From an uncultured Phycisphaerae bacterium (GTDB taxonomy: Bacteria; Planctomycetota; Phycisphaerae; SM23-33): a stretch of DNA of 64,000 nucleotides. Location of the stretch: positions 2,475-66,474 of the forward strand of contig CAVXDC010000012.1 of NCBI GenBank assembly GCA_963760365.1, written 5' to 3'. Positions within the stretch are counted from its first letter, which is position 1, and every line of letters starts with the position of its first letter. The notes below the pieces were generated by a model. It saw only the letters and a list, made by a program, of their open reading frames with translations, made no database searches and was not told where the DNA came from. A program made the position numbers and the translations under genes. This document shows positions 21,723 through 56,586 of the stretch, piece by piece.

Positions 21723-21965
21723 GGCGTTCCTTCGGTGCTGCTACGGCCGGAAAGTGTTTATTCTACCTTGCTAAAAGTCCTCCCGCCACAGTCTGTCTTT
21801 TTTGACCTTCGCATTTTGAAGGCGGTTGCCCAGTTCCCTTCGACTCTATCAAAAGGAGCAATCCGCCTTCGGCGGATCGCGTTGGCCTTGCGAAGTCCAA
21901 TGGGATTCCTTTTGGACGAACAGGGCTGGCAGCCTACAATCGCCTTAGTGCCGCGACAGGTCGCC

Positions 21966-37616: not shown

Positions 37617-37623
37617 GCAACCG

Positions 37624-38867: not shown

Positions 38868-38910
38868 GGTTCTCCACAAAGCGGGGGTTCTGCACACGCG
38901 AATCGTCGTG
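38868..38910. repeat. GTAGGG-hairpin element (8-bp inverted repeat gtgtgcag/ctgcacac) at the ribBA 3' end and the low-GC islet boundary
   Basis: GTAGGG TGTGCAG gttctccacaaagcgggggtt CTGCACAC immediately after the ribBA stop. Same GTAGGG-plus-palindrome format as the elements at 6896, 39806 and 40886. Confidence 0.5.
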
Positions 38911-38959
38911 TTGGTTTTCTGTGGGCAACAAGTTGCCCACCCTACTGGACTTGACTGGG

Positions 38960-39748: not shown

Positions 39749-39805
39749 GTAGTGCCTCGATTTATCTTTGCTGTTTCTCTTTACATCGTTCAGGTAGTTG
39801 CGTAG

Positions 39806-39830
39806 GGCGGGAGAATCGTTTCCCGCAGCT
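39806..39830. repeat. GTAGGG-hairpin element, copy A (gtagggcgggagaatcgtttcccgc)
   Basis: Matches copy B at 40886-40910 in 22 or 23 of 25 positions. Sits between the two low-GC islet genes. Confidence 0.6.
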
Positions 39831-39845
39831 AATGAGACACTGGCC

Positions 39846-40559
39846 CTACTTTGGCCTACCGTATAGCTTTTTCCAGCGAGACTTGATCCATGCGGCCATC
39901 CCCAGAACAACAGGAATCAACGCAGCCGTTAACATCTTGTCTGATATGGGGAATACAAAGCCTTCCTTGTACTCAAGCCCTTCGCGCAGTCTGATACTCC
40001 TGACCATTTGTTCAAGTATAGGGCTGTACTTCTCCACGTCCTTATCATCACAGTACAACACTGTCATAACCGTCCCTTGTTCCGTCAGCCTCATTCCTAT
40101 TATCCTCTTGAGGCCAGTTGGGTCGCTTATCTTCATCCAAAGAATGTGGCTTTCCGGTTCGTAGACGGGAGAACCGATGTCGAGTGAGGAACCCACTGAG
40201 GGGTCTATCTTGCTGACCTCTGTCTTGAGTCTTTGATTTATTGTCTTATATTTTTTCAACTCTTGTTCAGGCACACGTTTGGTTCTCACCTGAACCAAGA
40301 CATATGGTGTCTGCATCCAGGTTTTATTGGTCGAGGGCTGGAAACCGGCATCCATCTCCATGTTTACCGAAGCCGGTACGTTCTGCTGTAAGAGTCTAGA
40401 ATCCTCATCCAAGACGTTCTGAGGAATACGAACCCAACCGGCCGGTATCTGCATTGATATACCATCAGACACCGTGTACTGCTGCGAAGGATCGACTGCA
40501 CGGACTTGGACGGACAGCACGGCAAGAATAAGCGGGACTATCAGAAGCATTCTCATCAC
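39846..40559 (-). CDS. Hypothetical secreted protein with a C-terminal TM anchor (low-GC islet)
   Basis: Signal peptide (MMRMLLIVPLILAVLSVQVRA), C-terminal hydrophobic helix (LTAALIPVVLGMAAWI) and a basic tail. Low GC and atypical codon usage for this genome. Confidence 0.5.
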   Translation of the reverse strand: MMRMLLIVPLILAVLSVQVRAVDPSQQYTVSDGISMQIPAGWVRIPQNVLDEDSRLLQQNVPASVNMEMDAGFQPSTNKTWMQTPYVLVQVRTKRVPEQELKKYKTINQRLKTEVSKIDPSVGSSLDIGSPVYEPESHILWMKISDPTGLKRIIGMRLTEQGTVMTVLYCDDKDVEKYSPILEQMVRSIRLREGLEYKEGFVFPISDKMLTAALIPVVLGMAAWIKSRWKKLYGRPK

Positions 40560-40885
40560 AATGGTCTCCCCGTTCTCTGGTGCGTAACCGGAGCAACTAT
40601 CTTACGCGGCCAGTACTAAATGGCAAGTTTGTAGGTTGGGAAGCCCGGTGCCGTGGCCGCGGCGTTTGCGGCCACGTAGGTTACAGGCGCAACTGGGGAA
40701 AGGACTGTCGATCCAGTCGAATAGGCTCATTCACGCCCGTCTCCCACGCCCTGGCGCTGGACCACGGCCAGTCCTCCGCACGCGGCATAAGGCCACGCCG
40801 GACAGGATTATTGTGAATGTAACGGGCCTTCTCGTGAATCTCCTGGGTTGACCGCATGTTCCGGTCATACCCCCCTCCGCGCTGC

Positions 40886-42997: not shown

Positions 42998-43079
42998 CGT
43001 GCGATCCTTTCCGAGCTCTAGCGCCCGTCCGAAGGTTTTTTCATCCTCATTGGCCGGTGAGTGCCCAGCCAATAGCGAA

Positions 43080-43166
43080 CGGTAGGGGTGGGATTCGAAC
43101 CCACGGTACCCTTGCGGGCACACCGGTTTTCAAGACCGGCCCGATCGACCGCTCCGGCACCCTACC
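43080..43166 (-). tRNA. tRNA-Ser (anticodon TGA)
   Basis: The reverse complement folds as a class II tRNA: acceptor GGTAGGG/CCCTACC, anticodon arm CCGGT-CTTGAAA-ACCGG (anticodon TGA), long variable arm, T arm GTGGG-TTCGAAT-CCCAC, discriminator G. CCA is not encoded. Confidence 0.9.
43122..43166. repeat. Left copy of a 45-bp direct repeat (5' half of tRNA-Ser); putative island boundary attL
   Basis: accggttttcaagaccggcccgatcgaccgctccggcaccctacc. An imperfect copy with 42 of 45 matches lies at 58128-58172 in the same orientation. Confidence 0.7.
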
Positions 43167-43360
43167 ACAGTAGTCACAGGACCCGCATCTGACGGGCCTG
43201 AGATGCATTTCAGCCGCGTCGGACGGGCCTTCTCTGCATATCGTCCAGCTCGCCGCTTTGTCCCACCGCAACCCACCGGAGCACATGGCAACCCACCCCG
43301 TTGGGGGCAGTCCGGGGGGCAGTGGAGCAGGCAGTCGAGCGGGCAGTAAATCGCCGCCAC

Positions 43361-44164
43361 TCATGCCCCACCCGTTCCAGTCCTACCAGATTCTACCAGC
43401 GCAGGCTTTGCACACAAGTCCGGCAGCCGGCTCAGGGCGTCTACTTCCTGCTCTTGGAGGACGTGGGTGTAGCGGTCCATGGTCAGGGTGATGGTGCAGT
43501 GGCGGGCCAGGGATTGGGCCACGCGGGGATGGACTCCTCCCCTGGCCAGGTTAGTGATGAACGTGTGCCGCAGGGCGTGCCAATCGGCGTAGCGGCCGTT
43601 CTGATCGCGATACGGAATGCCGGCGGCAGCCAGGTCGGTCTGGAGCAGGCCGGCCCGGGCATTCTTGGAGCGTGGAAGGGAGAACGCGGGGCCGTCAGGC
43701 ATCTTGAGCGCCAGGGCCTGCTGGAGCTTGGTTACCAGCTCGGCTCGGAGCAGGACTGTGTCATCACGGCGGTGCTTGGAGTACGCCGCCCTGACCACAA
43801 GCCATGGCGGGTCGGCCTCGAAGTCGAAACTCCCCCGCGTCAGGGACATGATCTCGCGGACACGCAGCCCGGTCTCCAGGGCCAACTGATAGACCAGCGC
43901 CCGATCCGTCCCGGACATGCCGCCACGATTGGGCCTGCTTGCTGCCGCTTCAATGAGCCGGCAACACTCCTCAGTGGATAGCGCCCTCCTGTCATGCCGG
44001 CGGTCCAGTCTGACGTTCTGGCCTGAGAGGCCCACCAGGGGGTTCTCGTTCGCTCGGCGCTCACGGACCATCCAGCGGCAGAACTGCTTGGCCGCCTGGA
44101 GATAGAAGTTGGCCGTCTGAATTGAGACGCTGGGCTTATCCTTGGCATAAGTAGCTGACGACAC
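43361..44164 (-). pseudogene. Tyrosine recombinase / phage-type integrase, N-terminally truncated
   Basis: Catalytic domain with the RHTF and RYTH-type residues (WHALRHTFITNLARGG...LTMDRYTHV). The ORF begins at a GTG immediately after an in-frame TAG, the region upstream is lower-GC, and at 267 aa it lacks the N-terminal arm-binding domain. It lies adjacent to the tRNA-Ser 5' side. Confidence 0.7.
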
Positions 44165-44452
44165 CCAAGGGTGTCTATGTGCCTAGGAAAAAGATAACCT
44201 GCCAGTTGAGAAGCATAACTCGCTGCGATCCAGCAGCTTGAGCAGGGTAGGTTCGTGTGCGCGAAGAGGAGCTTCAACGCGCATCGCGCACGAGCTTCGT
44301 TCCGGTTCTGTCTGCACAATCCTTCGATCCACCCAGTTGGAGCTCATGATCCTGCAACCCTGGTATTACGAGTCGTTTGGTATCTGCCTAGGAACAGTCG
44401 CGAAGGGAAATTCCGGGCAAGAAAGGCGTGCGATCGTTGGCCGGTGCGCCCG

Positions 44453-45739
44453 TCACTCCACGAGCCGATTCCACGCGTCGGGATGAGGTCCGGACGCCCC
44501 CGGCAAGGTCACCGGGTCGGTGAGGTTCGTGATCCTCTTGTCTTCGTGAACCGCCGCGCCGCCGGTGAGGCTGACGTTATTGGCTACCACCGCCCCGCAG
44601 AGCTGGGAGCCGCTGGTGATCTGCACGTCCGCGCCGGGGGAGAGGATGACGCCCTCCGTGCTGGTGGTGCTGTTGCTCAGTTGGACCGGGCTGGTCCCCA
44701 GGTTGATGAACTTCAAGCGGGATAGGTCCGAGCCGCGCACGACGTTCGTCGCGCGGTCCCGAATCTCCAGGCTGCCTTTACAGTACAGCGTCAGGGACGC
44801 CCCGGGGAGGACTTCGATGCCCGATCCGTTCCAGATGTCGACGCTCCCTTCGGCCAAGATGATCACGTTGCCGCTGATCTGGACCCTGGTGCTGGACTCG
44901 ATCGAGAGATTGTCGACGTGAAGGTTTCCGCTGATGACAAAGGGTCCGCTGCCTTGGTAGGACCGGTCACCCACGCTGGAGCCCATCCCTGTGGGGGCGG
45001 CTGGGGTCGAAATCGCCAATGGCTGGGACATGGCGCTCACGGTCCCGGTGATGGTGCTGCCTCCGTCCTTGTGGACGACCACGTTGGGGTCGCCGGACGG
45101 TCCGATCGCCGCCGAGCCTTGAATCCGCGCGTCCGAGGTCAGGTAGAGGCCGCTGGGCGCGGTGGAATTAGTGGCCACAAACGCTTCGGCTCCGACATTG
45201 GGCCCACCGTATGCCCCGACGCCCGAGTCGTAACTGTCGATGGTGGAATTGTCCACGAAGATGGTGCCCAGCGCGCTGACTCCGCTGACAATCTGGACCG
45301 ATGGCATCGTCATGTGCACGCGCAGGGAGTAGCTCGCATCCCCGACGGTCCCCATGGCAAAGACGGTAAAAGGTGAAGTGGGGTCGTTGGTCAGGTCTCC
45401 ATCGGCCTCGTCCACCAGCCGCCAGGTGAACGTCCCCCGCCCCAGCGACTTCCCGATCGTCTGCTGACTGTACGCCGACCGCCAGCCATCCGTCTCGTCG
45501 ATCTGCGCCAGGGCGTGCTCGACGGCCGAAAAGGCCAGCGATTGCGCCTCCGACCAGTCCTGCGAACCGCCCGTGGACCGGGCCTGGACCCGGCTAACCG
45601 TGACAGCCCCCAGGCCGATGACCGTGAGGATCACGGCCATGCCCAACACCAGCAGGTAGATCGAGCCCCGCCGTCGGTTCGTGCGGACCCGGGGGAGACC
45701 AACGGAATGGCACCGGAGGCAGGGGTAGGGCATGGGCAT
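44453..45739 (-). CDS. GspK-like minor pseudopilin (large, beta-rich)
   Basis: RRRGSIYLLVLGMAVILTVIGLGAV is a GspK-type N-terminal helix (no Glu at +5), followed by a long Ser/Gly/Thr-rich beta-strand repeat region. Confidence 0.55.
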   Translation of the reverse strand: MPMPYPCLRCHSVGLPRVRTNRRRGSIYLLVLGMAVILTVIGLGAVTVSRVQARSTGGSQDWSEAQSLAFSAVEHALAQIDETDGWRSAYSQQTIGKSLGRGTFTWRLVDEADGDLTNDPTSPFTVFAMGTVGDASYSLRVHMTMPSVQIVSGVSALGTIFVDNSTIDSYDSGVGAYGGPNVGAEAFVATNSTAPSGLYLTSDARIQGSAAIGPSGDPNVVVHKDGGSTITGTVSAMSQPLAISTPAAPTGMGSSVGDRSYQGSGPFVISGNLHVDNLSIESSTRVQISGNVIILAEGSVDIWNGSGIEVLPGASLTLYCKGSLEIRDRATNVVRGSDLSRLKFINLGTSPVQLSNSTTSTEGVILSPGADVQITSGSQLCGAVVANNVSLTGGAAVHEDKRITNLTDPVTLPGASGPHPDAWNRLVE

Positions 45740-46379
45740 TCAAGGACCTCCGGCCGGGATGACGTTCAACAGGTTGGCGCCCGAGTACGCCCGGGTGCTG
45801 CTGTCGCTGCCGATCTGCAATTCCACGCCGACCCACGCGACGCACGTGATCGGGGAGGCCGGCCTGACGTCATAAACGCCCGCCTTGCTCCGCAGCGCCA
45901 CGACGGTGGTCGACACGCTCCTGGGGTCGGTGACGATCACCGAGATGCGCTTGACCCCGCGATCCGTCGTACCGCAGGGGGCCATGGTGTCCGGGTCGAT
46001 GTGCTCGACCGTGACCTTCCGTGTCCAGCCTGCCAGCCCGGGAATCGCGCGCCCGTCCCTGAACTGCGGTGGCGATTCCGTCCAGTTGTGATAATCGTCC
46101 ACGTCGTCGAACTGCGCGGGACGTGCCTGCCTCTCCTGGCTCGGGCCCGAACACGCTTTGGCCGGACGGGTCCAGATAGAAGTTCTGGAGGACCTCCGAC
46201 AGGAGCTGGTTGGCCAGGCCCGTGGCAGTGTTCCGGGAGACATTCAGCTGCCGCCCTTTCGCCAGCGAGCCAAACGTGTTGAGCACCATGGTGATCAGGA
46301 CCGCCAGGATCACGACGGAGATCGCTGCCTCCACGAGCGTCAGTCCACGGCGCCCGGACGATGACCCGTGAGGATTCAT
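45740..46379 (-). CDS. Pseudopilin (GspJ-like); an internal frameshift between about 46130 and 46240
   Basis: Prepilin-type N-terminus GRRGLTLVEAAISVVILAVLITMV. The C-terminal half (FDDVDDYHNWTESPPQF...) is in the adjacent frame. Confidence 0.5.
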
Positions 46380-46893
46380 GGGCAGGCCTCCGGGTCGCCC
46401 GATGGGCAGAACGCCAGCCATTGAATGTCCGCCGGCGTCAAGAGGGCCTGGGGAGACAACGTCTTGAGCAGGTAGGTCAGGCTGAACAGGTGCACGTCTT
46501 CGGCAATGATTGCGGCCGGCGAGCCGTTGACCTGGCGGGTGAGGGGGTCGCCCGGCGTACCGGACCAACTGTAGCGGATGGTCTCGGGCTGGCCGTCGCC
46601 ATTGCGGTCCGGCACGACCAGGGTGACGGCCTCGGCGGACTGTTGGCTCAAGGCCGTCGCCAGGCTCAGGTCCAGTGTGATCATCTGGATCGCCCGGCTC
46701 TGCCTGGACATGTTGTCAGTCTTGTCGGCCCCGCTGGACAGACCGCCATAGGCGAGGAACATGACGCCGACGATTCCGGCCAGGATGATCACGGCGATGG
46801 CCGTGCCGAGAACGGCCTCGATGAGCGTGAATCCCCCGTGGGCGTGGGTGGGTGCGCCGCGGCGCCCGTCCGGTCTGTGGCCTTGGGGTTCAT
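46376..46893 (-). CDS. Pseudopilin (GspI-like); a 1-bp frameshift in a G4 run at 46885-46888
   Basis: ATG 46891-46893 overlaps the upstream gene's stop codon (ATGA). After restoring one base the product reads MNPQGHRPDGRRGAPTHAHG GFTLIEAVLGTAIAVIILAGIVGV, a classic prepilin cleavage motif with Glu at +5. Confidence 0.55.
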
Positions 46894-47369
46894 TGGACCT
46901 TCACGTTTCCGGTGTTCTGGTCAAGCACGATAGTCCTCTGGAAGGAACCCGCCCCGACCACCACCTGCCCGCCTCGGTCCGGCAGCCCGTAGCCGTCGAA
47001 CGTGACGCTTCTGGACCCCTGGAAGTCCGCCGAGATGATGTCGGCATGATGGGGGGCCTCCCACAGACTGGCCACGTATTCGGCGGAGGCCCTCTCCAGG
47101 CTGCGTATGCCTGACAACCGGTACTCGTCGGTGTCGGGGTCGAACGTGACGACCCGCCGAACGCCGGTGGTCCAGGCGTTGTCACGGGCCATCGCCAAGT
47201 CCGCCGCGATGCGCTTGGCCGCCAGATCCGCTCGATAGAAATTGAGGGAGTCGACGTACCTGGGCATGGCGATGGCCGCAACCGTGCCCAGGATGCACAC
47301 GACGAGGACCGTCTCCAGCAGGCTGAATCCTCTCCGGATGAACTGGATGCTGTGGTCAAAGCGAGTCAT
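46890..47369 (-). CDS. Pseudopilin (GspH-like)
   Basis: MTRFDHSIQFIRRGFSLLETVLVVCILGTVAAIAMP. Confidence 0.65.
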   Translation of the reverse strand: MTRFDHSIQFIRRGFSLLETVLVVCILGTVAAIAMPRYVDSLNFYRADLAAKRIAADLAMARDNAWTTGVRRVVTFDPDTDEYRLSGIRSLERASAEYVASLWEAPHHADIISADFQGSRSVTFDGYGLPDRGGQVVVGAGSFQRTIVLDQNTGNVKVQ

Positions 47370-47564
47370 CCGATTCCGCCCTTTGTGGCGTTTCTGGGAT
47401 GCCCGTCTCCAGCCGCCCATGGCCGTTGGCGAGCCCGCACGGCGCCGGGTGTGACCAACGAGGAAGGCCCCACGGCGCTACAGGACGGACACGGGGCGGA
47501 GGCCTCTAGCGATCGTCTCGCCACGATTCGTCCGGCGCTGCTGCGCTCTGTCCAGAAAAGGACA

Positions 47565-48038
47565 TCAATAGGTGCTGTAGAGCTTCCCGGTGACGTCCAC
47601 TTCCGTAGTCGTGTTCGCCCTGATGTCGCCTGTGGCCGCGGTGTATATCCACCCGATCGTGGCCGCGTCGGCGGCAGCCACACCGCTCTGGCCCTTCCTA
47701 GCCCCCACGGGCAGAGGCGGAATCGTGCGGACATAGGGCCCGTAGATGAACACGGCGGTCTTGGTGGCGCTGGTCGCCCCGGCCTCGTTGGTGTATTGCG
47801 TAATCTGGGCCAGGAAGGTGGCGACGGCGGGGAACGCACCGACATGCTCAGCCGAATAGCGGTCAATGGCTTCCCTGAGCACCGCCAGGTTGCCGGACAG
47901 GGCCGCGTCGGCTGCACCGGCCGCCCCGCGGCTTAGCCTCGGTATGGCCACCGCCGCGATTAGGCCGATGATCACCACGACCAGCAACAGCTCAAGCAAG
48001 CTGAAGCCTTTACGCTCGCGCAAGTTCCGATGAGACAT
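47565..48038 (-). CDS. Major pseudopilin / type IV pilin-like protein (GspG-like)
   Basis: KGFSLLELLLVVVIIGLIAAVAIP is the class III signal peptide. About 157 aa. Confidence 0.8.
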   Translation of the reverse strand: MSHRNLRERKGFSLLELLLVVVIIGLIAAVAIPRLSRGAAGAADAALSGNLAVLREAIDRYSAEHVGAFPAVATFLAQITQYTNEAGATSATKTAVFIYGPYVRTIPPLPVGARKGQSGVAAADAATIGWIYTAATGDIRANTTTEVDVTGKLYSTY

Positions 48039-48179
48039 TTCTCCTTACCTCCTACTGGAGTAGCAGTCAAAATCTCGCTCCGCCAAGGTTCCACATCGCT
48101 TATCGACGCCCTGGCAAGCGGACTTTAGCACGGGGGGGAACCCTTCGAGAACCTTATGGGCCAGCAGGCTGGAGGAGGG

Positions 48180-48746
48180 TCACTCCTCGCGCCCGTCGGC
48201 ATTCACGGGCAACTCGAGGGTCACGCGAGACCCGTCCTCTGACACCAGGACGACCCCCCGTTCGCCCACTGAAACCAGTTTGAAGCCGTCGATCGTCTGT
48301 CCGAACCCCACGCAGGTATTGTCAATGATGGCCTGATAGCCTTTGGCGCCGACCATGACTGCCTTGAGGGTATGCTTCTGCATGAAGGCCTCCGCTGCGG
48401 ACCCGACGGTTCCTTTCACAGGGGGCTTGGAGGAAGCGGGCATCCAGTCCGCCGGGGGCTGGAAGGCATCGCGCATGTCGTCCGCCCGGAAGGGGGTGTT
48501 GGCGGTGGCCGCCTTGAGACGGCCGGCCAGGGCGTCTCCTGGCCTGTCGCCCACAGCGTCCGGCGTGTCAGCGGGCACAGCCGCAGGAGTGCCTGCCGGG
48601 GGTACCGCATCGATCCCGACGGCCGAGGCCAAAGCCCCCTGGGGGCCCGGAACGGCGGGCGTAGCCCGCAACCGGTCCATGAGAACAGCCGCCACGCCGA
48701 TCGCGCACAGCCCCATCAGGACCTTCTGTGTTTTCGAGAGGGCCAT
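48180..48746 (-). CDS. Hypothetical membrane-anchored periplasmic protein (possibly PilP/GspC-like)
   Basis: N-terminal TM segment (VLMGLCAIGVAAVLM), Pro/Ala-rich linker and a C-terminal beta domain. Its position between the PilO-like and GspG-like genes fits a PilP or GspC role. Confidence 0.35.
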   Translation of the reverse strand: MALSKTQKVLMGLCAIGVAAVLMDRLRATPAVPGPQGALASAVGIDAVPPAGTPAAVPADTPDAVGDRPGDALAGRLKAATANTPFRADDMRDAFQPPADWMPASSKPPVKGTVGSAAEAFMQKHTLKAVMVGAKGYQAIIDNTCVGFGQTIDGFKLVSVGERGVVLVSEDGSRVTLELPVNADGREE

Positions 48747-48799
48747 ACTTGAAGTAGAAGATACAACCGGGCTTGGGGCAAATGGGGGCGCCCTTTATC

Positions 48800-49336
48800 T
48801 TACGGACTGCCGGGCGCCTTGTCGGGGACGACATGCCAGACGAGGTCGACCTGGAACTCCGGCGGAGACGCCGAGTCGTCGTGCTTGCCGGACAGCAGGA
48901 ACGAGTCCACCGCCGTGTCCGGGAACGACTGAGACAACGTGTGGAGGAAGCCCGCCCAATCGCGATAGCCGCCGGTGCCGTTCAGACGAATCGGCACCGA
49001 TCCGGAGTTCTGGCCGTAGACGGGCTCGGCCGGTTGGACCTCATTCACCTTCAACCCATGATGGGCCGCCAGTTCCGCTAGCCGGCTGATCCTGTTGTTG
49101 ATCGCGCTGGCCGGCTCCAACTGGACCAAGCCCTGGGTCACGGCCTTTCGGACCTCCGAGAGCTTCTTCTTAAGGTCCTCAGCACGGGTCCTCATCAGCG
49201 CAATGTCTTTCTGCCGGCTCTCAAGCTGAGTCTTCTCAGCGGCGTGTCGGTCTTGCAGGTACAGGACGGGGCGCAGGCCGAACCAGAAGAAGAGGAACCC
49301 TGCCACCCCAGCCACCGCCAGGGCGGCCAGGTGCAT
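48800..49336 (-). CDS. PilO/GspM-like inner-membrane assembly protein
   Basis: MHLAALAVAGVAGFLFFWFGL TM helix, then a coiled-coil (LKKKLSEVRKA) and a periplasmic domain. The upstream extension of the computed ORF is low-complexity. Confidence 0.55.
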   Translation of the reverse strand: MHLAALAVAGVAGFLFFWFGLRPVLYLQDRHAAEKTQLESRQKDIALMRTRAEDLKKKLSEVRKAVTQGLVQLEPASAINNRISRLAELAAHHGLKVNEVQPAEPVYGQNSGSVPIRLNGTGGYRDWAGFLHTLSQSFPDTAVDSFLLSGKHDDSASPPEFQVDLVWHVVPDKAPGSP

Positions 49337-49395
49337 CCGGATATGCTTGCATGTTGTCAGCGGGCCGATCTTCACTGGACCGTTCCTCCGCAGTC

Positions 49396-49977
49396 CTACA
49401 GGGTGCACTCCAACCGGAACGCCATCGCCTGCTCGCCCAGGAACACCTGGCGAGTCGTCTTGACCAGCTTGACCTTGCCGAAAAGCCCCGTCTGCTCCAG
49501 TCGCAGCACGTAGGCGGAGACATCCGCCTGGGCCTTGGCCCATCCGCTCACCTCCAGCAGAAACGACCCGTCGGAGGCATCGGGATTGGCGGGGGACTGG
49601 CTGACGGGAGGAACCTTCTGAAGCCGGCATAGATCCAGGACGATCTGGTCCCCCAGGTTCTGGGCCACCGCCCTCAGCACGCTGCCCCAATCGGGCTGCT
49701 GCCCCACGGCCTGGGCCGCTTGCAGCTTCTGCCGAGCTTGGGCAAGCTCCACCGTCAGCACCAAAACCTGGCAACTGGACGCGTTCAGCCTGGCGGCCAC
49801 CGTCCTGATCTCGCTGTCCAGCGGCTTGCTGTCCAGGGCGACGTGGCGAATGCAGAGGAAGTACCCTACCAGCAGCGCCGCCCCATAGACCACCAGAGCG
49901 CTGGCCAATTTGAGCAGATGTGCCTTGTTCGCCTTGGCCTCGCGCCGGCCCAAAGGTATCAGGTTCACGCCGTTCAT
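49396..49977 (-). CDS. PilN/GspL-C-like protein
   Basis: MNGVNLIPLGRREAKANKAHLLKLASALVVYGAALLVGYF is a PilN-type N-terminus with TM helix and coiled coil. The start overlaps the PilM stop (ATGA). Confidence 0.6.
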   Translation of the reverse strand: MNGVNLIPLGRREAKANKAHLLKLASALVVYGAALLVGYFLCIRHVALDSKPLDSEIRTVAARLNASSCQVLVLTVELAQARQKLQAAQAVGQQPDWGSVLRAVAQNLGDQIVLDLCRLQKVPPVSQSPANPDASDGSFLLEVSGWAKAQADVSAYVLRLEQTGLFGKVKLVKTTRQVFLGEQAMAFRLECTL

Positions 49978-51053
49978 CAGTCCGCCTTCCAGGAGTACTG
50001 GGCCAGGCCTAGGGCCGGAATCAACGAGGGCCCGTAGGTCGCATTAATCGTTTCGGGGCACTGGCCCAGGTCGCCGGGGTTGACGATGCGCACCTCCAGG
50101 CCAAGTCTGGCGGCAAGGAACCCTTGCAGTCCCCGGATGCAGGCGCCGCCGCCGACCATCAGCAGACGCTTCACGAGGGCGTCCTGATACTGGCTGGCCA
50201 GGTACGCCAGGCTGGTGCGCACCTCCGCGGCCATGTTCTCGAGGTGGGCGGCCAGTGTGGTTGTGCTGCTACCCCCCTGGCCGTTGCCTGGACTCCCCGT
50301 GCCCGGCCCCGGATCGCCGGTGGGAAGCCCCAGGTTCTCCAGCCCTTCCGTGAAGAAAACGTGTTCCGTGGCGTCCACATCCGCGTTGCGTTCCGACGCC
50401 ACAAGGCGCACCATCGCCGCGAATCCGCTCTTGGTCAGGTCCCGCTCGTATACGACGGTGCCGCCGTGGAGCAGAACCAGCCGCGAGGACGCCCAGCCCA
50501 CATCCAGGATGGCCCCGGTGTGCTGCACGTCCGACAGGAGAGGCAGGCATGCCCGGCTGACGGCCATGGCTTGAACGTCCAGGGCTTCCACGTTCAGGCC
50601 CTCCCCCTCAACTAGGTCCAGGAGGCTCTCGGCGTTCGCCTGGGGGCATGCGACAGCCATCACGTAGGTTCGATTGGCCGCCCGGGCCGGCGGGGGCAGG
50701 TCCCAGCAGGCTATCTCAAGCGATCGCATGTCCACGTTGTGTCGGCGGGCCAACTCCGAGCAGGCAAGCTGTTTGATCGGAGCGCCCGAAGACCGAGGGG
50801 GTAGCTCCATGATCGCCGTCAGGATCTGGGTGGCCGGAACGGCCAGCACGATGGACTTGCCCCGGAACAGGTTCTTCCGCAGCGCCTGCGAGAGACGCTG
50901 GACTTCAGAGGGCTCCAGCGCGCCGTTGGAGCTCGTTCGCGGGACCCAGACGGCCGCCGTGATGCGAGAACCGACCACCTGGGCCGCCTTGATGTACCGC
51001 GAGCCGATGTCCACACCTATGATCGCGCGAGATGTCAGTGTCGGCCACCTCAA
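49977..51053 (-). CDS. PilM-like actin-fold ATPase (type IV pilus / T2SS inner-membrane platform)
   Basis: IIGVDIGSRYIKAAQV...LDVGWASSRLVLL...LMVGGGACIRGLQGFLAARLG. Confidence 0.8.
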   Translation of the reverse strand: MRWPTLTSRAIIGVDIGSRYIKAAQVVGSRITAAVWVPRTSSNGALEPSEVQRLSQALRKNLFRGKSIVLAVPATQILTAIMELPPRSSGAPIKQLACSELARRHNVDMRSLEIACWDLPPPARAANRTYVMAVACPQANAESLLDLVEGEGLNVEALDVQAMAVSRACLPLLSDVQHTGAILDVGWASSRLVLLHGGTVVYERDLTKSGFAAMVRLVASERNADVDATEHVFFTEGLENLGLPTGDPGPGTGSPGNGQGGSSTTTLAAHLENMAAEVRTSLAYLASQYQDALVKRLLMVGGGACIRGLQGFLAARLGLEVRIVNPGDLGQCPETINATYGPSLIPALGLAQYSWKAD

Positions 51054-52281
51054 GAGCCACCTCCGCCGGACATCATGCTCGTCACGTCGAACAACGGCAG
51101 AAAGATGCTGATGGCGACGAACCCGACCATCAGGCCCATCAGGATCAGCAGGACCGGCTCAACGATGCTCGTCAGCGATTTCAGGGCCAGTTCGTTCTCG
51201 TCATCCAGGAAGTCGGCCAATTCCAGCAGCAGCGGCCCGACCTGCCCGCTCTGCTCGCCGCTGCGCATGGATTCGTAGACCGACGGGCTGATAAGGTTCG
51301 TCTCGCGGAAGGCTGAGCTGACGGGCTCCCCGTGGCCGACGGCCTGTTCGGCCTTGGCCAGGAGGGCGGCGTAGTGAACGTTGCTCGTAGCGCCGCGGGT
51401 GAGGGACAGGATGTCCTGGACAGGCAGATGGCTGTCGGTCAACAGGCCCAGGAGGCGCACGATCCGCGCCGTGGCGAAGTTCCTGAAGAGTTTGCCGACT
51501 TGGGGCAGGCGAATCGCCACCGTATCCACCGCCCGCCTTCCGGCCGAGGACTTGAAGTACTGCCGGGCCGCCACAGCCGCCGCGACGATCGCTCCCGCCA
51601 AAGCCCACCAGTACGTCCGAAGGCCTTCGCCGGCCGCGATAAGGGCGGCGGTGGTGGGCGGCAGCGGGGCGCCGATATTCGCGAACAGCTCGCCGAAACG
51701 CGGCACGACGAACAGCAACAGGGCGCCGAACACCGTCGTCGCCACGCAGCACAGCAGAATCGGATAGGTCATCGCCGCACGCACGGTACTCAAGACATGC
51801 ACGCGCTTGCGGGTCAGAACCGCCAGCCGGTCCAGTAAGGCCGTCAGCTTGCCGCTGCTCTCGCCCGCGGCGACCATCGCCCGGTACACCGAATCGAAGC
51901 ACTCCGGATGCGCCCCCAGGGCCTCCGACAGCGACAGACCGCGCTCCAGGCGAGTGGAGACGTCCTGGATCACCTGGTGCCACCAAGGGTCGCGCGCCTG
52001 GCGTTCCAGCGCCTGAAGACCCTGCGCCAGAGGCGTGCCCGATCGGATCAGCGAGTAGAGCTGCGCGTGAGCAAGGCCAGCTCTCGGAGCTGGCGGATGC
52101 GGCTGCGCGGAAGGTGCAGTCGCCACGTCTTGGCTGCCACCGCCCGCCCGGCCGGGGCGATGTCCGCGACAAACAGGTCCTGTTGGTGAAGCCGGTCCAT
52201 GGCCTCGCCCAGGCTGCCTGCCTCCACGACACTGCAGACCTCTCGACCCGTCTTGTCGAAGGCGCGAAACTCAAGCTTCAT
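51050..52281 (-). CDS. gspF: Type II secretion / type IV pilus platform protein GspF/PilC; a 1-bp frameshift near 52080
   Basis: N-terminal GspF domain (MKLEFRAFDKTGREVCSVVEAGSLGEAMDRLHQQDLFVADI) in one frame and the remainder (AQLYSLIRSGTPLAQGLQAL...three TM...second GspF repeat) in the adjacent frame. Confidence 0.85.
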
Positions 52282-52293
52282 GTCGTTGCCCCA

Positions 52294-54051
52294 TTAAGTG
52301 CTCGCCACCTGGACCTCCGGTCGCCTGGTGGCTGGCTGGTTCACTGAGCTCACCTCGCTATGCGTGGCGCTCAGTACCTCCTCCAGCGTCGTCTTGCCGG
52401 CCTCCGCCAGGACCAGCCCTTCCTCGCGCAGCGGCATCGCTCCTTGCCGGATCCACTCGCAGCGAAACTCCTGCGGCGGCACCCTCCTGTAAATCATGTT
52501 CCGCAGCTCCGGCGTGATCTCCATAACCTCGAAGATTCCCGCCCGGCTGTGGAAGCCGGTGTGCTGGCACTGCTCGCACCCGCTGCCCTTGCTGAAGGGT
52601 TTGTTGACCTGTCCGGTCAGGCCGGCGTCGCGCAGGACGACGGCGTCGGGGTAGTAAATTGTCGTGCAGTTGGGGCAGTTTAGCCGCACCAGCCGCTGCG
52701 CGACGACCCCGTTCAAGGCCCCAGAGAGCAGGTACGGCTCCACGCCCATATCCACCAGCCGGGCGACCGCGCCGGGGGCGTCGTTGGTGTGCAGCGTCGC
52801 CAGCACGAGGTGCCCCGTCAGGGCCGCGTGCACCGACACGCTGGCGGTCTCCTCGTCGCGGATTTCGCCGACCATGATGATGTCCGGGTCCTGCCGCAGG
52901 ATGCTCCGCAGGGCCCGCGCGAAGGTCATCCCGATGGCCTCCTGCACCTGGATCTGGTTGACCAGGTCCAGCTGATACTCCACGGGGTCCTCAACCGTGA
53001 CGATGTTGACCTCGGGGCTGCGCAGGGAGTCCAGGGCAGAGTAGAGCGTGGTGGTCTTGCCGCTGCCGGTCGGACCGGTCACCAGCACCATCCCGTAGGG
53101 CTCGCAGAGCATCCGCCGGAAACACTCCAGCGTCTCAGGGCGGAACCCCAGGTCCTCCATCCGGACCTTCAGGTTGGCCTTGTCCAGGATGCGGATGACG
53201 ACCTTCTCTCCCAGCAGCGTGGGCATGCTCGAGACGCGCAGGTCGATCTGTCGCCCCTCGGCCAGGATGCCCAGGCGCCCCTCCTGCGGCAGGCGCTTCT
53301 CGGCGATGTCCATCCTGGCCATGACCTTCACGCGCGAGACGATGGCTGCATGCATGTCCCCCGGCGGTTGCATCAGGTCGCGCAGCACCCCGTCGATGCG
53401 GTAGCGGACCCGCGTAGAGGCACTGTCCGGCTCGATGTGGATGTCGCTCGACCGGTCGCGGATGGCCTTGAGAAGGACCATGTTGACCAGGTTCACCACC
53501 GGGTTGCCCTCGCGAGGCTTGTCCAGGTCGATCACCGGACCTTCGTCGCTCTCGGCCGTGACCTCGGCTAGGTCTGACTCGGAGATGGAGGCAAGGACGC
53601 TCTCCATGTCCATCTTCATGGAGGCATGCTTCTTGATGAACTCGATGGTGTTGGCCTCCAGCGCCAGCACTGGGTGGATGTTGCAGTGGGTCAGCTGCCG
53701 CAGCCGGTCGATGTGGGGCAGGGACTGGGGTTCGGCCATCGCGACTGTCAGGGTGTCCCAGACCTTGAACATCGGTAGGGCCTTGAGCCGTAGGGCCTCC
53801 TCTTGGCCGATCAGCTCCAGCATCGCAGGGTCCGCCAGACCGGTGCGAAGCACGCAGCCGCGCACCCCCAGGTGCTTGGCTAGCACCTTGACGAGCTGCT
53901 CGTGGCTCAGCACCCCGCGAGAAACCAGCAGCTCACCCAGGAACTGCCCGGTGACCTTCTGCTCGGCCAGGGCCTGGTCGAGCTGTTCCTTGGACAGGAC
54001 ATTCTCCTGGACGAGGACATCACCGATCCGTATGGGTGCCGAAGCGGTCAT
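52294..54051 (-). CDS. gspE: Type II secretion / type IV pilus assembly ATPase GspE/PilB
   Basis: T2SSE_N domain, Walker A (GPTGSGKTT), Asp box, Walker B, His box and tetracysteine motif (CPNC...CEQC). Confidence 0.95.
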   Translation of the reverse strand: MTASAPIRIGDVLVQENVLSKEQLDQALAEQKVTGQFLGELLVSRGVLSHEQLVKVLAKHLGVRGCVLRTGLADPAMLELIGQEEALRLKALPMFKVWDTLTVAMAEPQSLPHIDRLRQLTHCNIHPVLALEANTIEFIKKHASMKMDMESVLASISESDLAEVTAESDEGPVIDLDKPREGNPVVNLVNMVLLKAIRDRSSDIHIEPDSASTRVRYRIDGVLRDLMQPPGDMHAAIVSRVKVMARMDIAEKRLPQEGRLGILAEGRQIDLRVSSMPTLLGEKVVIRILDKANLKVRMEDLGFRPETLECFRRMLCEPYGMVLVTGPTGSGKTTTLYSALDSLRSPEVNIVTVEDPVEYQLDLVNQIQVQEAIGMTFARALRSILRQDPDIIMVGEIRDEETASVSVHAALTGHLVLATLHTNDAPGAVARLVDMGVEPYLLSGALNGVVAQRLVRLNCPNCTTIYYPDAVVLRDAGLTGQVNKPFSKGSGCEQCQHTGFHSRAGIFEVMEITPELRNMIYRRVPPQEFRCEWIRQGAMPLREEGLVLAEAGKTTLEEVLSATHSEVSSVNQPATRRPEVQVAST

Positions 54052-54383
54052 TGGCAGCTCCCCACGGCCATATCCACGTCTTGGCAGTGCTCAAAAAGCG
54101 GCGCCAGTTCTGTCAACTCCAGGACTTCTGCAAGGGTTGCGTTGGCGCCGGCCAGCTTGAGCATGAGGCCCTGTTGGATCATCCGCTCGGCCGCCTCCGC
54201 GAGAACCTCCAGGCCGCGGCTATCGACAAACAGGATCCCCGATGCGTCCAAGACGATCCGGGGAGGGCTTTCGTCCATCGCCTTGGCCAGAACGGCCTTG
54301 AGCTCCTCGGCGTCGGCCGCAACCAGCAGACCGCGAGGCCGAAGAATAATCACATCGCCTTGTCGCGTGCTCTCGATTCTCAT
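54048..54383 (-). CDS. STAS-domain protein (anti-sigma factor antagonist, SpoIIAA-like), first gene of the secretion/pilus operon
   Basis: ILRPRGLLVAADAEELKAVL...LVLDASGILFVDSRGLEVL. The stop overlaps the gspE start. Confidence 0.75.
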   Translation of the reverse strand: MRIESTRQGDVIILRPRGLLVAADAEELKAVLAKAMDESPPRIVLDASGILFVDSRGLEVLAEAAERMIQQGLMLKLAGANATLAEVLELTELAPLFEHCQDVDMAVGSCQ

Positions 54384-54835
54384 GTCGTGCCGCGCCGGCC
54401 CCCAAGGCCGGCTTGTCCTGATGCCTCGTGTGACGGTTCCGAACGTACCGACAGCGTCGCCGTGTTCTCGAGGGACGAGCGCCGCGGGCGCCGCCGCAGC
54501 CCCGTCCGACGACGGCGACGGTTACACGGACATCGCGATTTCATCTAGAACCATCGGTCGGCCTTGACGCAACTTGAGGAGAAACATCGGCTTCTCGATC
54601 ACCTTCGAGCCGCCACACCTGCGCCCGGCCGTGGGCGCGCGGGCAACTGGCTGACCTTGGGGACCCGATCAACGGACGGCGGAAGGGCGACACCACGCAG
54701 GTACTCGGGAGCTACGCTGACCGGATCACGGCCTGGCCCTCCAAGAAGCGCCGCGAAATCGCCCTTAACTCGACGTGGTGGGGTCTCCAGGAACACAACG
54801 ACCGCCAGGAACGGCGGTCGTGTGCAAAGCTTATA

Positions 54836-54900
54836 GATGGGGTGGGATTCGAACGCATGACCCGCCGGTTATGAGCCGACTTAGCCAGCCATCCTGAACC
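54836..54900 (-). pseudogene. Partial tRNA-Met-like fragment (anticodon arm CAT plus T-loop and acceptor 3' strand; no matching 5' half)
   Basis: Reverse complement ...GTCGG-CTCATAA-CCGGC GGGTC ATGCG-TTCGAAT-CCCAC CCCATCT A. The T stem has mismatches and no complementary 5' acceptor strand could be found. Confidence 0.35.
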
Positions 54901-55173: not shown

Positions 55174-55560
55174 TCAGAACACGCCTGTTTGGAGCAAACC
55201 ATCCCCCGCCTCAAATGAACTGCGATACCAGGCCGGGTCGGCTGGAGCGGCCCATTCGAAGCCGGTGCCGGGCGTGCCGTCGTAGCTGATGTAGCGGCTG
55301 ATCTCTCGCCAGCCCAGCAGTTGCCTGGCTGCCCCCGCAGCCGCGGCGTCGCGCGGGGTCAGTGGCTTTCCGGTCCCCGCCTCCCAACCCTCGCGGAAGA
55401 AGGCCCACGCTGCATGACCGGCCTCGACCATGCCCAATGCGGACCCCAACTGCATGGCCGAACAACCAACTCGGCACATTTCCAGATCAAAGAAGCCCGT
55501 GAACCGCCCTTGCTGGACGTGCAGGTTGGCGACGTCCTGGTGGCACAAGATGCGAGGCTG
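55174..55560 (-). pseudogene. Phosphotransferase (APH/choline-kinase family) C-terminal fragment
   Basis: ILCHQDVANLHVQQGRFTGFFDLEMCRVGCSAMQLGSAL resembles the APH catalytic-loop region (LCHGDLHPGN...IDFE). The N-terminal lobe is absent and that space is occupied by the methyltransferase gene. Confidence 0.4.
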
Positions 55561-55619
55561 CGCCGGGCGCGGAGACGCCGCACGGCGAACGACTCCTTTC
55601 TCTCTCCGATGCCCATCCG

Positions 55620-56453
55620 TCAATCGCCGGCCAGGCGGGCCCAGATCGTGAGCCAGGGCGGGGCGTAGGCCTTGAAGTGGTCCCAACTGCCCGGCCGGGC
55701 ATCGAGGCTACCGGCATCTTGCTCCCACAGGCCCTGCACGACAAAGCCGCGCCGAATCAACCCATTGACCAGGGTTCCTAGCGTGTGGCGGAACTCGCGT
55801 GGCCCGTGGATGCGAACCGTAGGCAGGCTTTCTTGAGGCTTCTGTGATTCCTCGCTGCCTGGCTCGGGCCGGTCCCAGGGCGCCACATCCCAGAACGGCT
55901 GGGTGTCGATCTCTCGGCCTTCCACGTAAGGGTGGATGACCACGTAGCCCGCACCGTTCCAACTATCTTGGTCCAGGCCGTGGGCGAACGGATTCCAGCA
56001 GCTCATACGATATTGCCCACGGGGCCGCAGGACGCAGCGGACCTGGCCGAACACGACATCGGCGTCGGGTACGAAGTTCAGGGAATGGGCATGCCACACC
56101 ACGTCGAAGCTGCCCGGACCAAAACACGAAAGGTCGCGCATGTCTCCCTGGATGGTCCGAACGGTCTTTCCGTAGTGCTCAGCCGCCTGGCGGTCGCGAG
56201 CCAGCTGCGTGTCGCACAGGTCCAGGACCGTCACGTTGGCCCCCAACAGGGCAAAGGCAGCCGACTGCTGCCCGCCTCCGCCAGCCAGACACAGGACCTC
56301 CCGCCCCGCCGGGTCGTCCATCATGCCTTCAGGGTCCACAAGCTTGCGGGCGGAGGTGGCATCCAGGTTCAGGGCGGGGCGTGAGAATATGACACCTGCC
56401 TTCGCCAGTTCTTCCCACCGTTCCTTATTGAATCTTGCCAGGCCGTCCAACAT
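55620..56453 (-). CDS. Class I SAM-dependent methyltransferase
   Basis: Motif I region (VLCLAGGGGQQSAAFALLGANVTVLDL), post-I Asp, motif II (IQGDMRDL...FDVVW) and motif III (LRPRGQY). Confidence 0.7.
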   Translation of the reverse strand: MLDGLARFNKERWEELAKAGVIFSRPALNLDATSARKLVDPEGMMDDPAGREVLCLAGGGGQQSAAFALLGANVTVLDLCDTQLARDRQAAEHYGKTVRTIQGDMRDLSCFGPGSFDVVWHAHSLNFVPDADVVFGQVRCVLRPRGQYRMSCWNPFAHGLDQDSWNGAGYVVIHPYVEGREIDTQPFWDVAPWDRPEPGSEESQKPQESLPTVRIHGPREFRHTLGTLVNGLIRRGFVVQGLWEQDAGSLDARPGSWDHFKAYAPPWLTIWARLAGD

Positions 56454-56586
56454 GTGGCACCTTCGAACAACTTATCCTGGCCCTTGCGGAATTGCCCGTG
56501 TTTTCCGGGCGTTTCCTCTGGGGTACATATCCCGGCCGCGCCCCGCCGATGGGTTGGAGCCCCCCTGAGTCCATGTGAAACGGTCA

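Follow-up and report, generated by a model that had tools for sequence, protein, structure and literature searches.

The operon described here belongs to a bacterium of the Phycisphaerae (Planctomycetota). It occupies positions 44453-54383 of the 64-kb stretch of DNA that we analysed (the window) and comprises 12 co-oriented minus-strand genes, encoding a STAS protein, a PilB-like ATPase, PilC, PilM, PilN, PilO, a PilP-like protein and five pilins. The series begins with a STAS protein of the SpoIIAA/RsbV type (54048..54383, 111 aa; Pfam STAS, 7.9e-16), followed by a PilB-like extension ATPase (52294..54051, 585 aa; T2SSE, 4e-131, with an MshEN N-terminal domain), the PilC/GspF platform protein (51050..52281, split in frame; Pfam T2SSF, 4.7e-52), the actin-like cytoplasmic platform protein PilM (49977..51053, TTG start; Pfam PilM_2, 2.8e-18; NCBIfam pilM, 2.9e-23), PilN (49396..49977; Pfam PilN, 6.5e-07), a PilO/GspM-like protein (48800..49375; Pfam PilO, 1.9e-07; T2SSM_b, 1.3e-04), whose GTG start was set from an alignment with the nearest related locus, L083, and a 188-aa PilP-like protein (48180..48746), whose predicted C-terminal domain resembles PilP. 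Stops and starts overlap by 4 nt at STAS/PilB (as ATGA), PilC/PilM, GspH/minor pilin 2 and minor pilin 2/minor pilin 3, and by 1 nt at PilM/PilN; around the major pilin gene there are intergenic gaps of 53, 141 and 195 nt, and a strong GGAGG ribosome-binding site lies 5' of that gene. A conserved non-coding leader or promoter region on the same strand (54384..54844), 5' of the STAS gene, forms the upstream end of a 10.4-kb block shared with L083; it matches no Rfam family at threshold and has a fold z-score of -0.73.

One major and four minor or tip pilins complete the operon. The major pilin or pseudopilin (47565..48038, 157 aa; motif KG/FSLLE; N_methyl, 2.5e-06) matches NCBIfam GspG weakly, at 41.6 bits against a cut-off of 88.85. 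It is followed by a GspH/FimU-like minor pilin (46890..47369, 159 aa; Pfam GspH, 1.8e-06; start likewise set from the L083 alignment), minor pilin 2 (46376..46893, frame broken; GG/FTLIE; N_methyl, 0.0034), minor pilin 3 (45740..46379, frame split; RG/LTLVE; N_methyl, 1.6e-04) and a protein in the tip or GspK/PilX position (44453..45739, 428 aa), which has a hydrophobic N-terminal segment lacking Glu5, then a DUF7305 domain (Pfam, 6.9e-18), and is 76% identical to the final gene of the L083 operon. These are the genes that a preliminary description of this DNA had named, all recovered on the minus strand at these positions by profile matches or, for the PilP-like protein, by predicted structure. 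Its division of the minor pilins into H-, I-, J- and K-like holds for the GspH-like gene; no profile backs the I-like and J-like labels of the two middle genes, which drew on position and prepilin motif only.

Three operon genes are broken in frame. A 1-nt deletion near 52062 splits pilC and leaves its N-terminus in another frame, and the L083 gene is intact at 426 aa (tblastn, blastn). Relative to L083, minor pilin 2 has lost a net 25 nt near 46858-46863, which breaks its frame in the leader, and a 2-nt deletion near 46114 causes minor pilin 3 to match in two frames by tblastn, the L083 counterpart being intact at 213 aa. The blastn block shared by the two loci (44426-54844, 86.4% identity) contains indels whose lengths are not divisible by 3. 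Because frameshifts also interrupt housekeeping genes of this window (ribBA and the genes for an ABC exporter and an AcrB-like pump), the breaks in pilC and the two minor pilins are likely assembly errors; with three genes affected, it is not certain that the operon works in this genome. In GC content and GC3 the operon is similar to the remainder of the window. A recombinase gene and a tRNA-Ser lie just downstream of the operon, and the tRNA T-arm recurs, as an 18/19-nt copy, exactly at the end of the L083 homology.

Against the PDB, the ATPase matches full-length PilB of Geobacter and Myxococcus (~500 bits), compared with 380 bits for EpsE, whose alignment starts at residue 160 and so covers just the C-terminal part. 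NCBIfam scores are 585 bits for PilB and 563 for GspE, both under the equivalog cut-offs. The N-terminal region carries a tandem c-di-GMP motif (RIGDVLVQENVLSKEQLDQALAEQ, a 5-residue spacer and FLGELLVSRGVLSHEQLVKVLAKH) and scores 62.6 against the c-di-GMP motif model NF053729 (cut-off 38). By sequence, the ATPase resembles PilB more closely than GspE, and its N-terminus is of the MshE type and putatively c-di-GMP-binding. Because PilM, PilN, PilO and PilP stand in for GspL and GspC, the machine is type IVa pilus (T4aP)-like rather than a T2SS; of the double label first given to it, the T4aP part is borne out by the PilB-type ATPase and PilMNOP, and the T2SS part falls for want of GspL and GspC. 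The operon would accordingly be read, from its profile matches, as the inner-membrane and filament part of such a machine, including a predicted PilM-N-O-P alignment complex.

The PilP-like protein, which matches no Pfam or NCBIfam family, starts with a membrane helix, which a Pro/Ala-rich linker joins to a small C-terminal beta-domain that AF2 models with a pLDDT of 71-82. PilP accounts for each of the top seven Foldseek PDB matches of this domain (rmsd 1.8-1.9 A over ~65 residues), with E-values of only ~1e-2. To our knowledge, PilP has a single known role, bridging PilN/O to the N0 domain of the secretin; the presence of a PilP-like protein therefore implies a secretin partner elsewhere. 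As the preliminary description had noted, the window itself encodes neither secretin nor prepilin peptidase: a search of all coding-looking ORFs of at least ~200 aa and ten intervening ORFs of 105-318 aa gave no match to Secretin, Peptidase_A24 or a second T2SSE/PilT family in the 64 kb, and neither component lies within ~10 kb on either side of the operon. Since five prepilins need a peptidase, the simplest view is that its gene, like that of the secretin, lies at another site in the genome.

The first ORF of the operon is a genuine SpoIIAA/RsbV-type STAS protein that retains a phosphorylatable serine, Ser55, within the motif VDSRGLE. It scores 58.4 bits against the NCBIfam anti-sigma factor antagonist model (cut-off 53.45), its AF2 model (pLDDT 94.6) matches SpoIIAA/RsbV with a Foldseek TM of ~0.9, and residues D54, S55, G57, L58 and E59 are invariant across a 35-homologue alignment; the partner-switching-type fold and the serine expected from the first reading of the DNA are thus both found. 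Glycine replaces the serine in the STAS protein of L022, and in L026 the motif has TS in place of DS, so phosphorylation may not be essential. STAS proteins from Phycisphaerae to Pirellulales share a strongly conserved C-terminal tail, AVRSF, which is atypical for SpoIIAA; in the window's own STAS clade it is altered to AVGSCQ. Just outside the family, the nearest multi-domain STAS relatives from a search of 1.8 billion proteins are fused to SpoIIE/PP2C and HATPase_c_2 (RsbW-like) domains, an arrangement consistent with classical partner switching in which the kinase or anti-sigma factor has gone unseen.

A STAS gene followed by the ATPase gene recurs in every one of ~20 related loci. A family-specific STAS profile matched 23 ORFs in 86 loci and nothing else; 22 of them immediately precede the ATPase gene, and the remaining match falls within the ATPase ORF of L026, beside a GAF-GGDEF-EAL gene. 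There, on one MAG contig, an N-terminal extension matches at 28 bits with the family-specific profile only (Pfam gives no STAS). The stop codon of STAS runs into the start codon of the ATPase gene not only in the window but also in L083, L085, L087 and the P0007 contig. When the ATPase cores are placed in an NJ tree, a rough distance method without support values, all STAS-linked ATPases form one group, mostly from Planctomycetota, apart from ~60 PilB/GspE relatives without STAS. The pairing is conserved, not accidental. It seems not to have been described before and suggests a novel means of switching pilus assembly on or off. The STAS gene had been presented as the leading gene, which is true of the window's sub-clade (the window and the intact operons of L083, L087 and the P0007 contig); in many relatives signalling genes precede it, either an orthologous PAS-HisKA-HATPase_c kinase (L001-L009, L081, L085, L088) or, in the Pirellulales loci L029 and L054, kinase-REC-(GAF)-HD-GYP. 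No homologue of the relatives' upstream kinase occurs in the 64-kb window.

Because the STAS-ATPase coupling is conserved across related loci, post-translational control of the ATPase is a reasonable reading. STAS, co-translated with the ATPase, would act as its dedicated regulatory partner, binding it in one state that is probably set by Ser55 phosphorylation or by a competing partner. The likely docking site is the MshEN N-terminal region, also the predicted c-di-GMP reader; once bound, STAS would either allow the motor to engage the platform or prevent it from doing so, any direction assigned to this regulation being presumptive. Pilus assembly would so follow environmental signals, which in many relatives would enter through the adjoining PAS histidine kinase, or kinase, receiver and HD-GYP phosphodiesterase, and in the window's sub-clade would come from elsewhere; secretin, prepilin peptidase and any retraction ATPase would likewise be encoded elsewhere in the genome. 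Taken whole, a T4aP-like machine with STAS as dedicated post-translational regulator of its ATPase, through putative binding and phosphorylation, and with its missing parts at other loci, seems to us the likeliest reading, about as apt to be right as wrong.

The preliminary description had also allowed for control of a sigma factor. In this classical form of partner switching, STAS would release a sigma factor bound by an RsbW-like anti-sigma kinase whose gene lies elsewhere, and would control transcription, perhaps that of the pilus operon, its adjacency to pilB reflecting co-regulation only. In its fold and conserved serine the protein corresponds exactly to SpoIIAA/RsbV, the antagonist superfamily score is above its cut-off, and the nearest multi-domain relatives carry SpoIIE/PP2C and RsbW-like domains. 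However, the window and eight Pfam-annotated neighbourhoods yielded no gene for an RsbW-like kinase, a PP2C phosphatase or a sigma factor, so this version lacks local support; the tight, clade-wide and often overlapping adjacency of STAS and ATPase would be unexpected for a mere regulator of transcription, and non-sigma STAS targets have precedent, as with HmpV of Nostoc (PMC6495340). We consider it unlikely. STAS could instead be a constitutive, unphosphorylated structural or adaptor subunit that connects the ATPase with the platform or with c-di-GMP enzymes, in the way that PilZ joins FimX to PilB in Xanthomonas, given that Ser55 is not universal (L022, and the degenerate motif of L026), that the AVRSF tail could be a docking peptide, and that c-di-GMP enzymes adjoin in L029, L054 and L026. 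The invariance of Ser55 and DSxGLE in the 35-member family alignment, and replacement of the tail by AVGSCQ in the window's clade, make such a role rather improbable.

A decaying or newly mobilised locus, nonfunctional here and with STAS in leader position as a by-product of upstream kinase loss, would account for the three frame-breaking indels, for the recombinase gene, tRNA-Ser and T-arm copy at the end of the L083 homology, and for the missing kinase. But the split housekeeping genes point to assembly indel errors, GC and GC3 do not set the operon apart, and the kinase-less, STAS-first layout of the intact L083, L087 and P0007 operons argues for a stable sub-clade architecture, making decay very doubtful. 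We give equally little credence to a machine specific to PVC bacteria that genuinely lacks a secretin and passes the outer membrane via a different conduit, a non-canonical design raised in the preliminary description. No secretin was found in the window or within ~10 kb upstream of STAS in annotated relatives, and the pilins follow pilMNOP at the place of pilQ in a classical pilMNOPQ operon; yet the operon encodes a PilP-like protein, which leaves that design unsupported, and pil genes are often scattered in bacterial genomes.

Compared with the type IVa pilus of Myxococcus xanthus and Pseudomonas aeruginosa, the operon shares a full-length PilB-like ATPase, PilC, PilM, PilN, PilO, a PilP-like fold, and a major pilin with four minor pilins of which the first is GspH/FimU-like (FimU/PilVWX in T4aP). 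It differs in that pilP is not followed by pilQ, pilD and pilT are absent from the locus, the ATPase and pilins score below the NCBIfam equivalog cut-offs, the tip protein has DUF7305 instead of a PilX/PilY1-type domain, and a STAS gene stands ahead of pilB. Likeness to the T2SS (GspC-M, GspD, GspO) extends to weak-to-moderate GspE, GspF and GspG matches of the ATPase, platform (whose best NCBIfam match is GspF) and major pilin, to four minor pilins in H-I-J-K order and to the lack of a retraction ATPase in the locus. By contrast, GspL, GspC and GspD are absent, PilM and PilN replace GspL, the PilP-like protein replaces GspC, and the ATPase N-terminus is MshEN/PilB-type rather than a GspE N1E domain. 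With MshE of the Vibrio MSHA pilus the ATPase shares a predicted N-terminal tandem motif above the NCBIfam cut-off for MshE-related c-di-GMP binding, whereas the remaining operon follows the PilMNOP pattern and adds a STAS partner gene.

In the FimX-PilZ-PilB system of Xanthomonas and Pseudomonas, a ~110-aa adaptor binds PilB and couples the ATPase to a c-di-GMP sensing protein; the putative STAS-ATPase binding would resemble this in logic only, the folds (PilZ and STAS) being different. Partner-switching STAS systems with non-sigma outputs include SypA/SypE of Vibrio fischeri, BtrV/BtrW of the Bordetella T3SS and HsbA of P. aeruginosa. HmpV, the partner-switching output of HmpU/V/W in Nostoc punctiforme, is required for type IV pilus-dependent motility through an undefined effector (PMC6495340). 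Like HmpV and similar systems, the protein described here is a single-domain STAS with a phosphorylatable serine, tied to control of a surface machine. Unlike them, it has no PP2C or RsbW-like partners nearby, histidine kinase and c-di-GMP enzymes being the neighbours of STAS in relatives instead, and its gene is joined into the pilus operon beside the ATPase.

The operon consists of twelve co-oriented genes running from 54383 down to 44453 on the minus strand, most of them identified by profile searches. It opens with a 111-aa STAS protein (54383-54048; Pfam STAS, 7.9e-16) and a T2SSE-family ATPase of 585 aa whose N-terminal domain is MshEN (54051-52294; profile searches), and continues with the T2SSF platform protein PilC (52281-51050; Pfam T2SSF; frame-broken in the assembly), PilM (51053-49977; Pfam PilM_2), PilN (49977-49396; Pfam PilN), PilO (49375-48800; Pfam PilO) and a 188-aa PilP-like protein (48746-48180) that has no family match and is recognized by its predicted fold only. 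These are followed by a 157-aa major prepilin (48038-47565; N_methyl motif), a GspH-like prepilin that is the first minor pilin (47369-46890; GspH domain), two further minor pilins identified by their N_methyl motifs (minor pilin 2, 46893-46376; minor pilin 3, 46379-45740), and a 428-aa tip protein in which a hydrophobic segment at the N-terminus precedes a DUF7305 domain (45739-44453). At five gene junctions the stop codon overlaps the next start codon; the major pilin gene is set apart by gaps of 53-195 nt and has a strong GGAGG ribosome-binding site before it. Class III signal peptides (G↓F/L xxxE, with cleavage motifs read from the translations) are present in the major and minor pilins. 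Profile and ORF analysis recovered all twelve genes listed in the preliminary description at their correct coordinates; for the two middle minor pilins, its names I-like and J-like derive solely from position and prepilin motif.

A scan for promoters and terminators returned nothing beyond chance level. The 460 nt 5' of the STAS gene (54384-54844) form a non-coding leader that is ~86% conserved with L083, the nearest relative of the window operon, and differs from it by indels that are not multiples of three; this leader has no Rfam match, no known riboswitch or structured leader, and an ordinary folding energy (z = -0.73). Across the window, G+C ranges from 58 to 69% in 2-kb steps, and real genes are strongly GC-biased at third positions. 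The interval 38900-40700, with a G+C of 0.58-0.59, lacks this third-position bias and holds ORFs of 251 and 318 aa without a Pfam match; it may be foreign or non-coding DNA.

We found the leading gene to encode a true SpoIIAA/RsbV-type STAS protein, as had been proposed, with both the fold and the conserved serine in place. Its scores as an anti-sigma-factor antagonist exceed the thresholds of both Pfam and NCBIfam, and its AlphaFold2 model (pLDDT 94.6, 35 homologues) shows the four-stranded beta-sheet and helices of a STAS domain over ~110 aa. Foldseek aligns the model to anti-sigma-factor antagonists with a TM of 0.88-0.90 and an rmsd of ~1.6 A, the top structural matches being Haliangium 4hyl, SpoIIAA with SpoIIAB (1th8), and RsbV with RsbW. 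Ser55, the equivalent of the phosphorylated serine, lies in VDSRGLE as part of the DSxG motif that opens helix 2, and D54, S55, G57, L58 and E59 are invariant across the 35-homologue alignment; exceptions to the motif are rare among distant members (Gly in locus L022, TS in locus L026). A HMMER search of 1.8 billion representative proteins with the STAS family returned 3,721 at E<=1e-10. Ten long multi-domain relatives were scanned, and each carries three STAS repeats; because most of the ten combine these repeats in one polypeptide with SpoIIE/PP2C, RsbW-like HATPase_c_2 or Ser/Thr kinase domains, we place the family in the partner-switching world.

The association of this STAS protein with the ATPase extends well beyond the window. 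An ATPase search limited to one genome per species gave 80 loci. The seven closest (61-69% identity) come from MAGs of Phycisphaerae or Planctomycetota and share one gene order from the STAS gene to the tip protein. When the STAS family profile was run over all ORFs of 86 loci, it matched 22 ORFs directly 5' of the ATPase, one within the ATPase ORF, and none elsewhere. STAS-positive loci beyond Phycisphaerae come from Planctomycetaceae, Pirellulales and Thermoguttaceae MAGs, and from a few MAGs labelled otherwise. In a neighbor-joining tree of the ATPase core, a rough one that carries no support values and has a STAS-less Phycisphaerales locus at the clade base, the STAS-linked ATPases form one clade, apart from ~60 other PilB/GspE relatives. 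Because these ATPases share one clade and the pairing recurs across loci, we regard the STAS-ATPase pair as an old unit passed on by inheritance. The single match within an ATPase ORF belongs to L026 (1628-3697), from a MAG labelled Gammaproteobacteria, where a 139-aa in-frame N-terminal extension scores 28 bits with the STAS family profile; a GAF-GGDEF-EAL gene (L026 1-1632) precedes and adjoins this ATPase. Since Pfam calls no STAS domain in the extension and a search with it found no further STAS-ATPase fusions, L026 offers a weak hint of a domain fusion.

Many of these loci encode signaling proteins next to the STAS gene. An orthologous PAS-HisKA-HATPase_c kinase ends immediately before it in L001-L009, L081, L085 and L088, with identities to the L085 kinase of 43-57% in L001-L007 and 30-37% in L008 and L009. 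A kinase and a receiver lie upstream in L022, L033 and L059. The Pirellulales loci L029 (5849-9590) and L054 (6195-9635) encode, in order, a kinase, a single-domain receiver, a (GAF-)HD-GYP phosphodiesterase, STAS and the ATPase, a complete signaling set ahead of the pilus genes. This upstream kinase is absent from the window, L083, L087 and the P0007 contig, the members of the window's own sub-clade, and since the upstream kinase is missing there, STAS is truly the first gene of the operon in this group. The C-terminal tail of the protein is AVRSF in most STAS relatives from Phycisphaerae, Pirellulales and Thermoguttaceae, but reads AVGSCQ or AVESC in the kinase-less sub-clade, a shift that may go together with the disappearance of the neighboring kinase. 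Neither an RsbW/SpoIIAB-like kinase nor a PP2C phosphatase was found in the 64-kb window or in the ~10 kb upstream in annotated relatives, and no sigma-factor gene was found in the window or the annotated neighborhoods.

The ATPase and its platform indicate what kind of machine the STAS gene accompanies. The best structural matches of the ATPase in the PDB are the Geobacter and Myxococcus PilB structures, to which it aligns over its full length (~500 bits), whereas alignment to the T2SS ATPase EpsE begins only at residue 160 (~380 bits). NCBIfam scores it at 584.8 bits as PilB (equivalog cut-off 675.65) and 563 as GspE, both below cut-off. Its N-terminus matches Pfam MshEN (1.1e-10) and, over residues 8-59, the c-di-GMP motif model NF053729 of NCBIfam (62.6 bits against a cut-off of 38); the tandem 24-residue motif of MshEN ATPases, predicted to bind c-di-GMP, is present in this region. 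The platform is PilM, PilN and PilO rather than GspL. For the PilP-like protein, with four homologues available, the C-terminal beta-domain is modeled with a pLDDT of 71-82 and the remainder poorly; the top seven Foldseek matches of the domain in the PDB are all PilP (rmsd 1.8-1.9 A over ~65 residues), with a probability of ~1 but a weak E of ~1e-2. The combination of PilC with PilM-PilN-PilO-PilP that marks a T4aP is thus present, PilP by fold alone. Some traits recall a T2SS: the platform protein matches GspF best, the major pilin bears a weak resemblance to GspG (below cut-off), the minor pilins form a set in H-I-J-K style, and PilT is absent from the locus. The scores pass the equivalog threshold of no named system, and the description that fits the machine best is T4aP-like with a few features of a T2SS. 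We rejected the T2SS class because GspL, GspC and GspD are missing and the ATPase N-terminus is of the PilB/MshE type; GspL, GspC and Secretin profiles have no match in the window, and PilM/PilN and the PilP-like protein occupy those positions.

Pfam was scanned against all coding-looking ORFs of at least ~200 aa in the window and ten ORFs of 105-318 aa between them. Among the scanned ORFs of the 64 kb there is no Secretin (PF00263), no Peptidase_A24 (PilD) and no second T2SSE/PilT, and Pfam finds none of the three in eight related contigs (operon plus ~10 kb upstream of STAS). PilP couples PilN/O to the N0 domain of the secretin in T4aP. Because PilP docks on a secretin and five prepilins depend on a peptidase, it is simplest to assume that the genome carries both genes outside this locus; the "missing secretin" is probably ordinary, with the genes likely at other sites. 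Of the interpretation in the preliminary description, then, the STAS coupling proved real and conserved. Its T2SS label gives way to a locus with PilM/N/O and a PilP-like protein in place of GspL, GspC and GspD, and its suggestion of a secretin-less PVC machine finds no support in an operon that encodes a PilP-like protein and five prepilins requiring a peptidase. It had also allowed for a secretin directly outside the window as part of the same operon; this does not apply, because the operon stops well inside the window.

Comparison with L083 bears on both the integrity of the operon and its boundaries. L083 is the closest relative found, with 86.4% nucleotide identity over ~10.5 kb (window 44426-54844), and its operon is intact, with a pilC of 426 aa and minor pilins of 180 and 213 aa. 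Relative to it, the window lacks 1 nt of pilC near 52062, a net 25 nt of the minor pilin 2 leader near 46858-46863, and 2 nt of minor pilin 3 near 46114, and each loss breaks the frame. These breaks may reflect real pseudogenisation, but genes outside the operon are frame-split too: an ABC exporter (19420-21740) is read in one frame for its membrane domain and in another for its ATPase domain, ribBA (37534-38852) falls apart into DHBP synthase and GTP cyclohydrolase II frames, and the AcrB-like pump at 60167-63998 is likewise divided between frames. This pattern suggests an indel-prone window assembly, with about one frameshift per 10 kb, and because housekeeping genes of the same window are affected, assembly indel errors are the most economical account of the operon's frame breaks.

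Homology to L083 ends 27 nt past the tip protein gene on one side and at 54844 on the upstream side, the latter within an 18/19-nt copy of the T-arm/acceptor of tRNA-Ser. The tRNA-Ser(TGA) gene is found a short way downstream of the operon (43079-43167), with a short tyrosine-recombinase ORF between them (43361-44182), and the resulting 18/19-nt direct repeat (54839-54857 and 43085-43103) brackets the operon and the recombinase ORF; its upstream copy belongs to a remnant that resembles a tRNA but is called by neither ARAGORN nor Rfam. In L083 the flanks differ: a DUF4011 helicase is encoded upstream of the operon and a hydrolase downstream of it. Rearrangement by a recombinase is plausible, and the repeats may mark a past island boundary. 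We did not adopt a genomic island as the main explanation, because the operon's composition matches the genome and its layout, with the repeat copy 5' of the intact tRNA, departs from the standard order of tRNA, integrase, island and repeat. Just upstream of the operon block, 55174-55707 on the minus strand encodes the C-terminal third only of an APH-family phosphotransferase and overlaps the end of a methyltransferase ORF (55620-56471); this piece is a gene fragment or another frameshift. ARAGORN also calls a tRNA-Glu(CTC) at 34268-34339, inside a DegT/DnrJ aminotransferase ORF and unconfirmed by Rfam, which is likely a false positive.

What the STAS protein acts on can be read in two ways. 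It could be a classical antagonist of an anti-sigma kinase encoded elsewhere, a viable alternative for a protein whose structural matches include SpoIIAA with SpoIIAB and RsbV with RsbW. We favor a reading in which it would act on the ATPase itself, on the strength of translational coupling, clade-wide co-inheritance, c-di-GMP and two-component neighbors, and a neighborhood free of any sigma partner. Under action on the ATPase, STAS would serve as a switch for pilus assembly, probably working at or near the predicted c-di-GMP-reading N-terminus of the motor. The fuller proposal, that the family comprises direct regulators of the T4P extension ATPase that dock on MshEN and integrate kinase/phosphorylation and c-di-GMP signals, in a module of kinase, optional receiver and HD-GYP, STAS and PilB common in Planctomycetota, is tentative, and we give it somewhat less than an even chance. 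If it is true, the partner in this form of partner switching would be a secretion-type motor ATPase in place of an anti-sigma factor, and the STAS proteins would form a previously unrecognized class of regulator.

The locus would then represent partner-switching-type control of a type IV filament machine. To our knowledge, Planctomycetota envelope machines are poorly understood, and such control would open the surface attachment and pili of this phylum to concrete tests. Post-translational switching of pilus motors is, as far as we know, established in few systems, namely c-di-GMP on MshE/PilB, PilZ/FimX, and polarity GTPases; if a STAS protein is tied to the motor gene throughout a phylum, it would bring in a new kind of input, and would carry partner switching beyond sigma factors to an ATPase of the secretion family. 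In the literature searched, nothing connects STAS to GspE, PilB, a pilus ATPase or Planctomycetes beyond the Hmp system of Nostoc. There, the Nostoc punctiforme protein HmpV is described as the output of partner switching, with an undefined effector and a tie to type IV pili (PMC6495340), a precedent for STAS proteins with a non-sigma output linked to these filaments.
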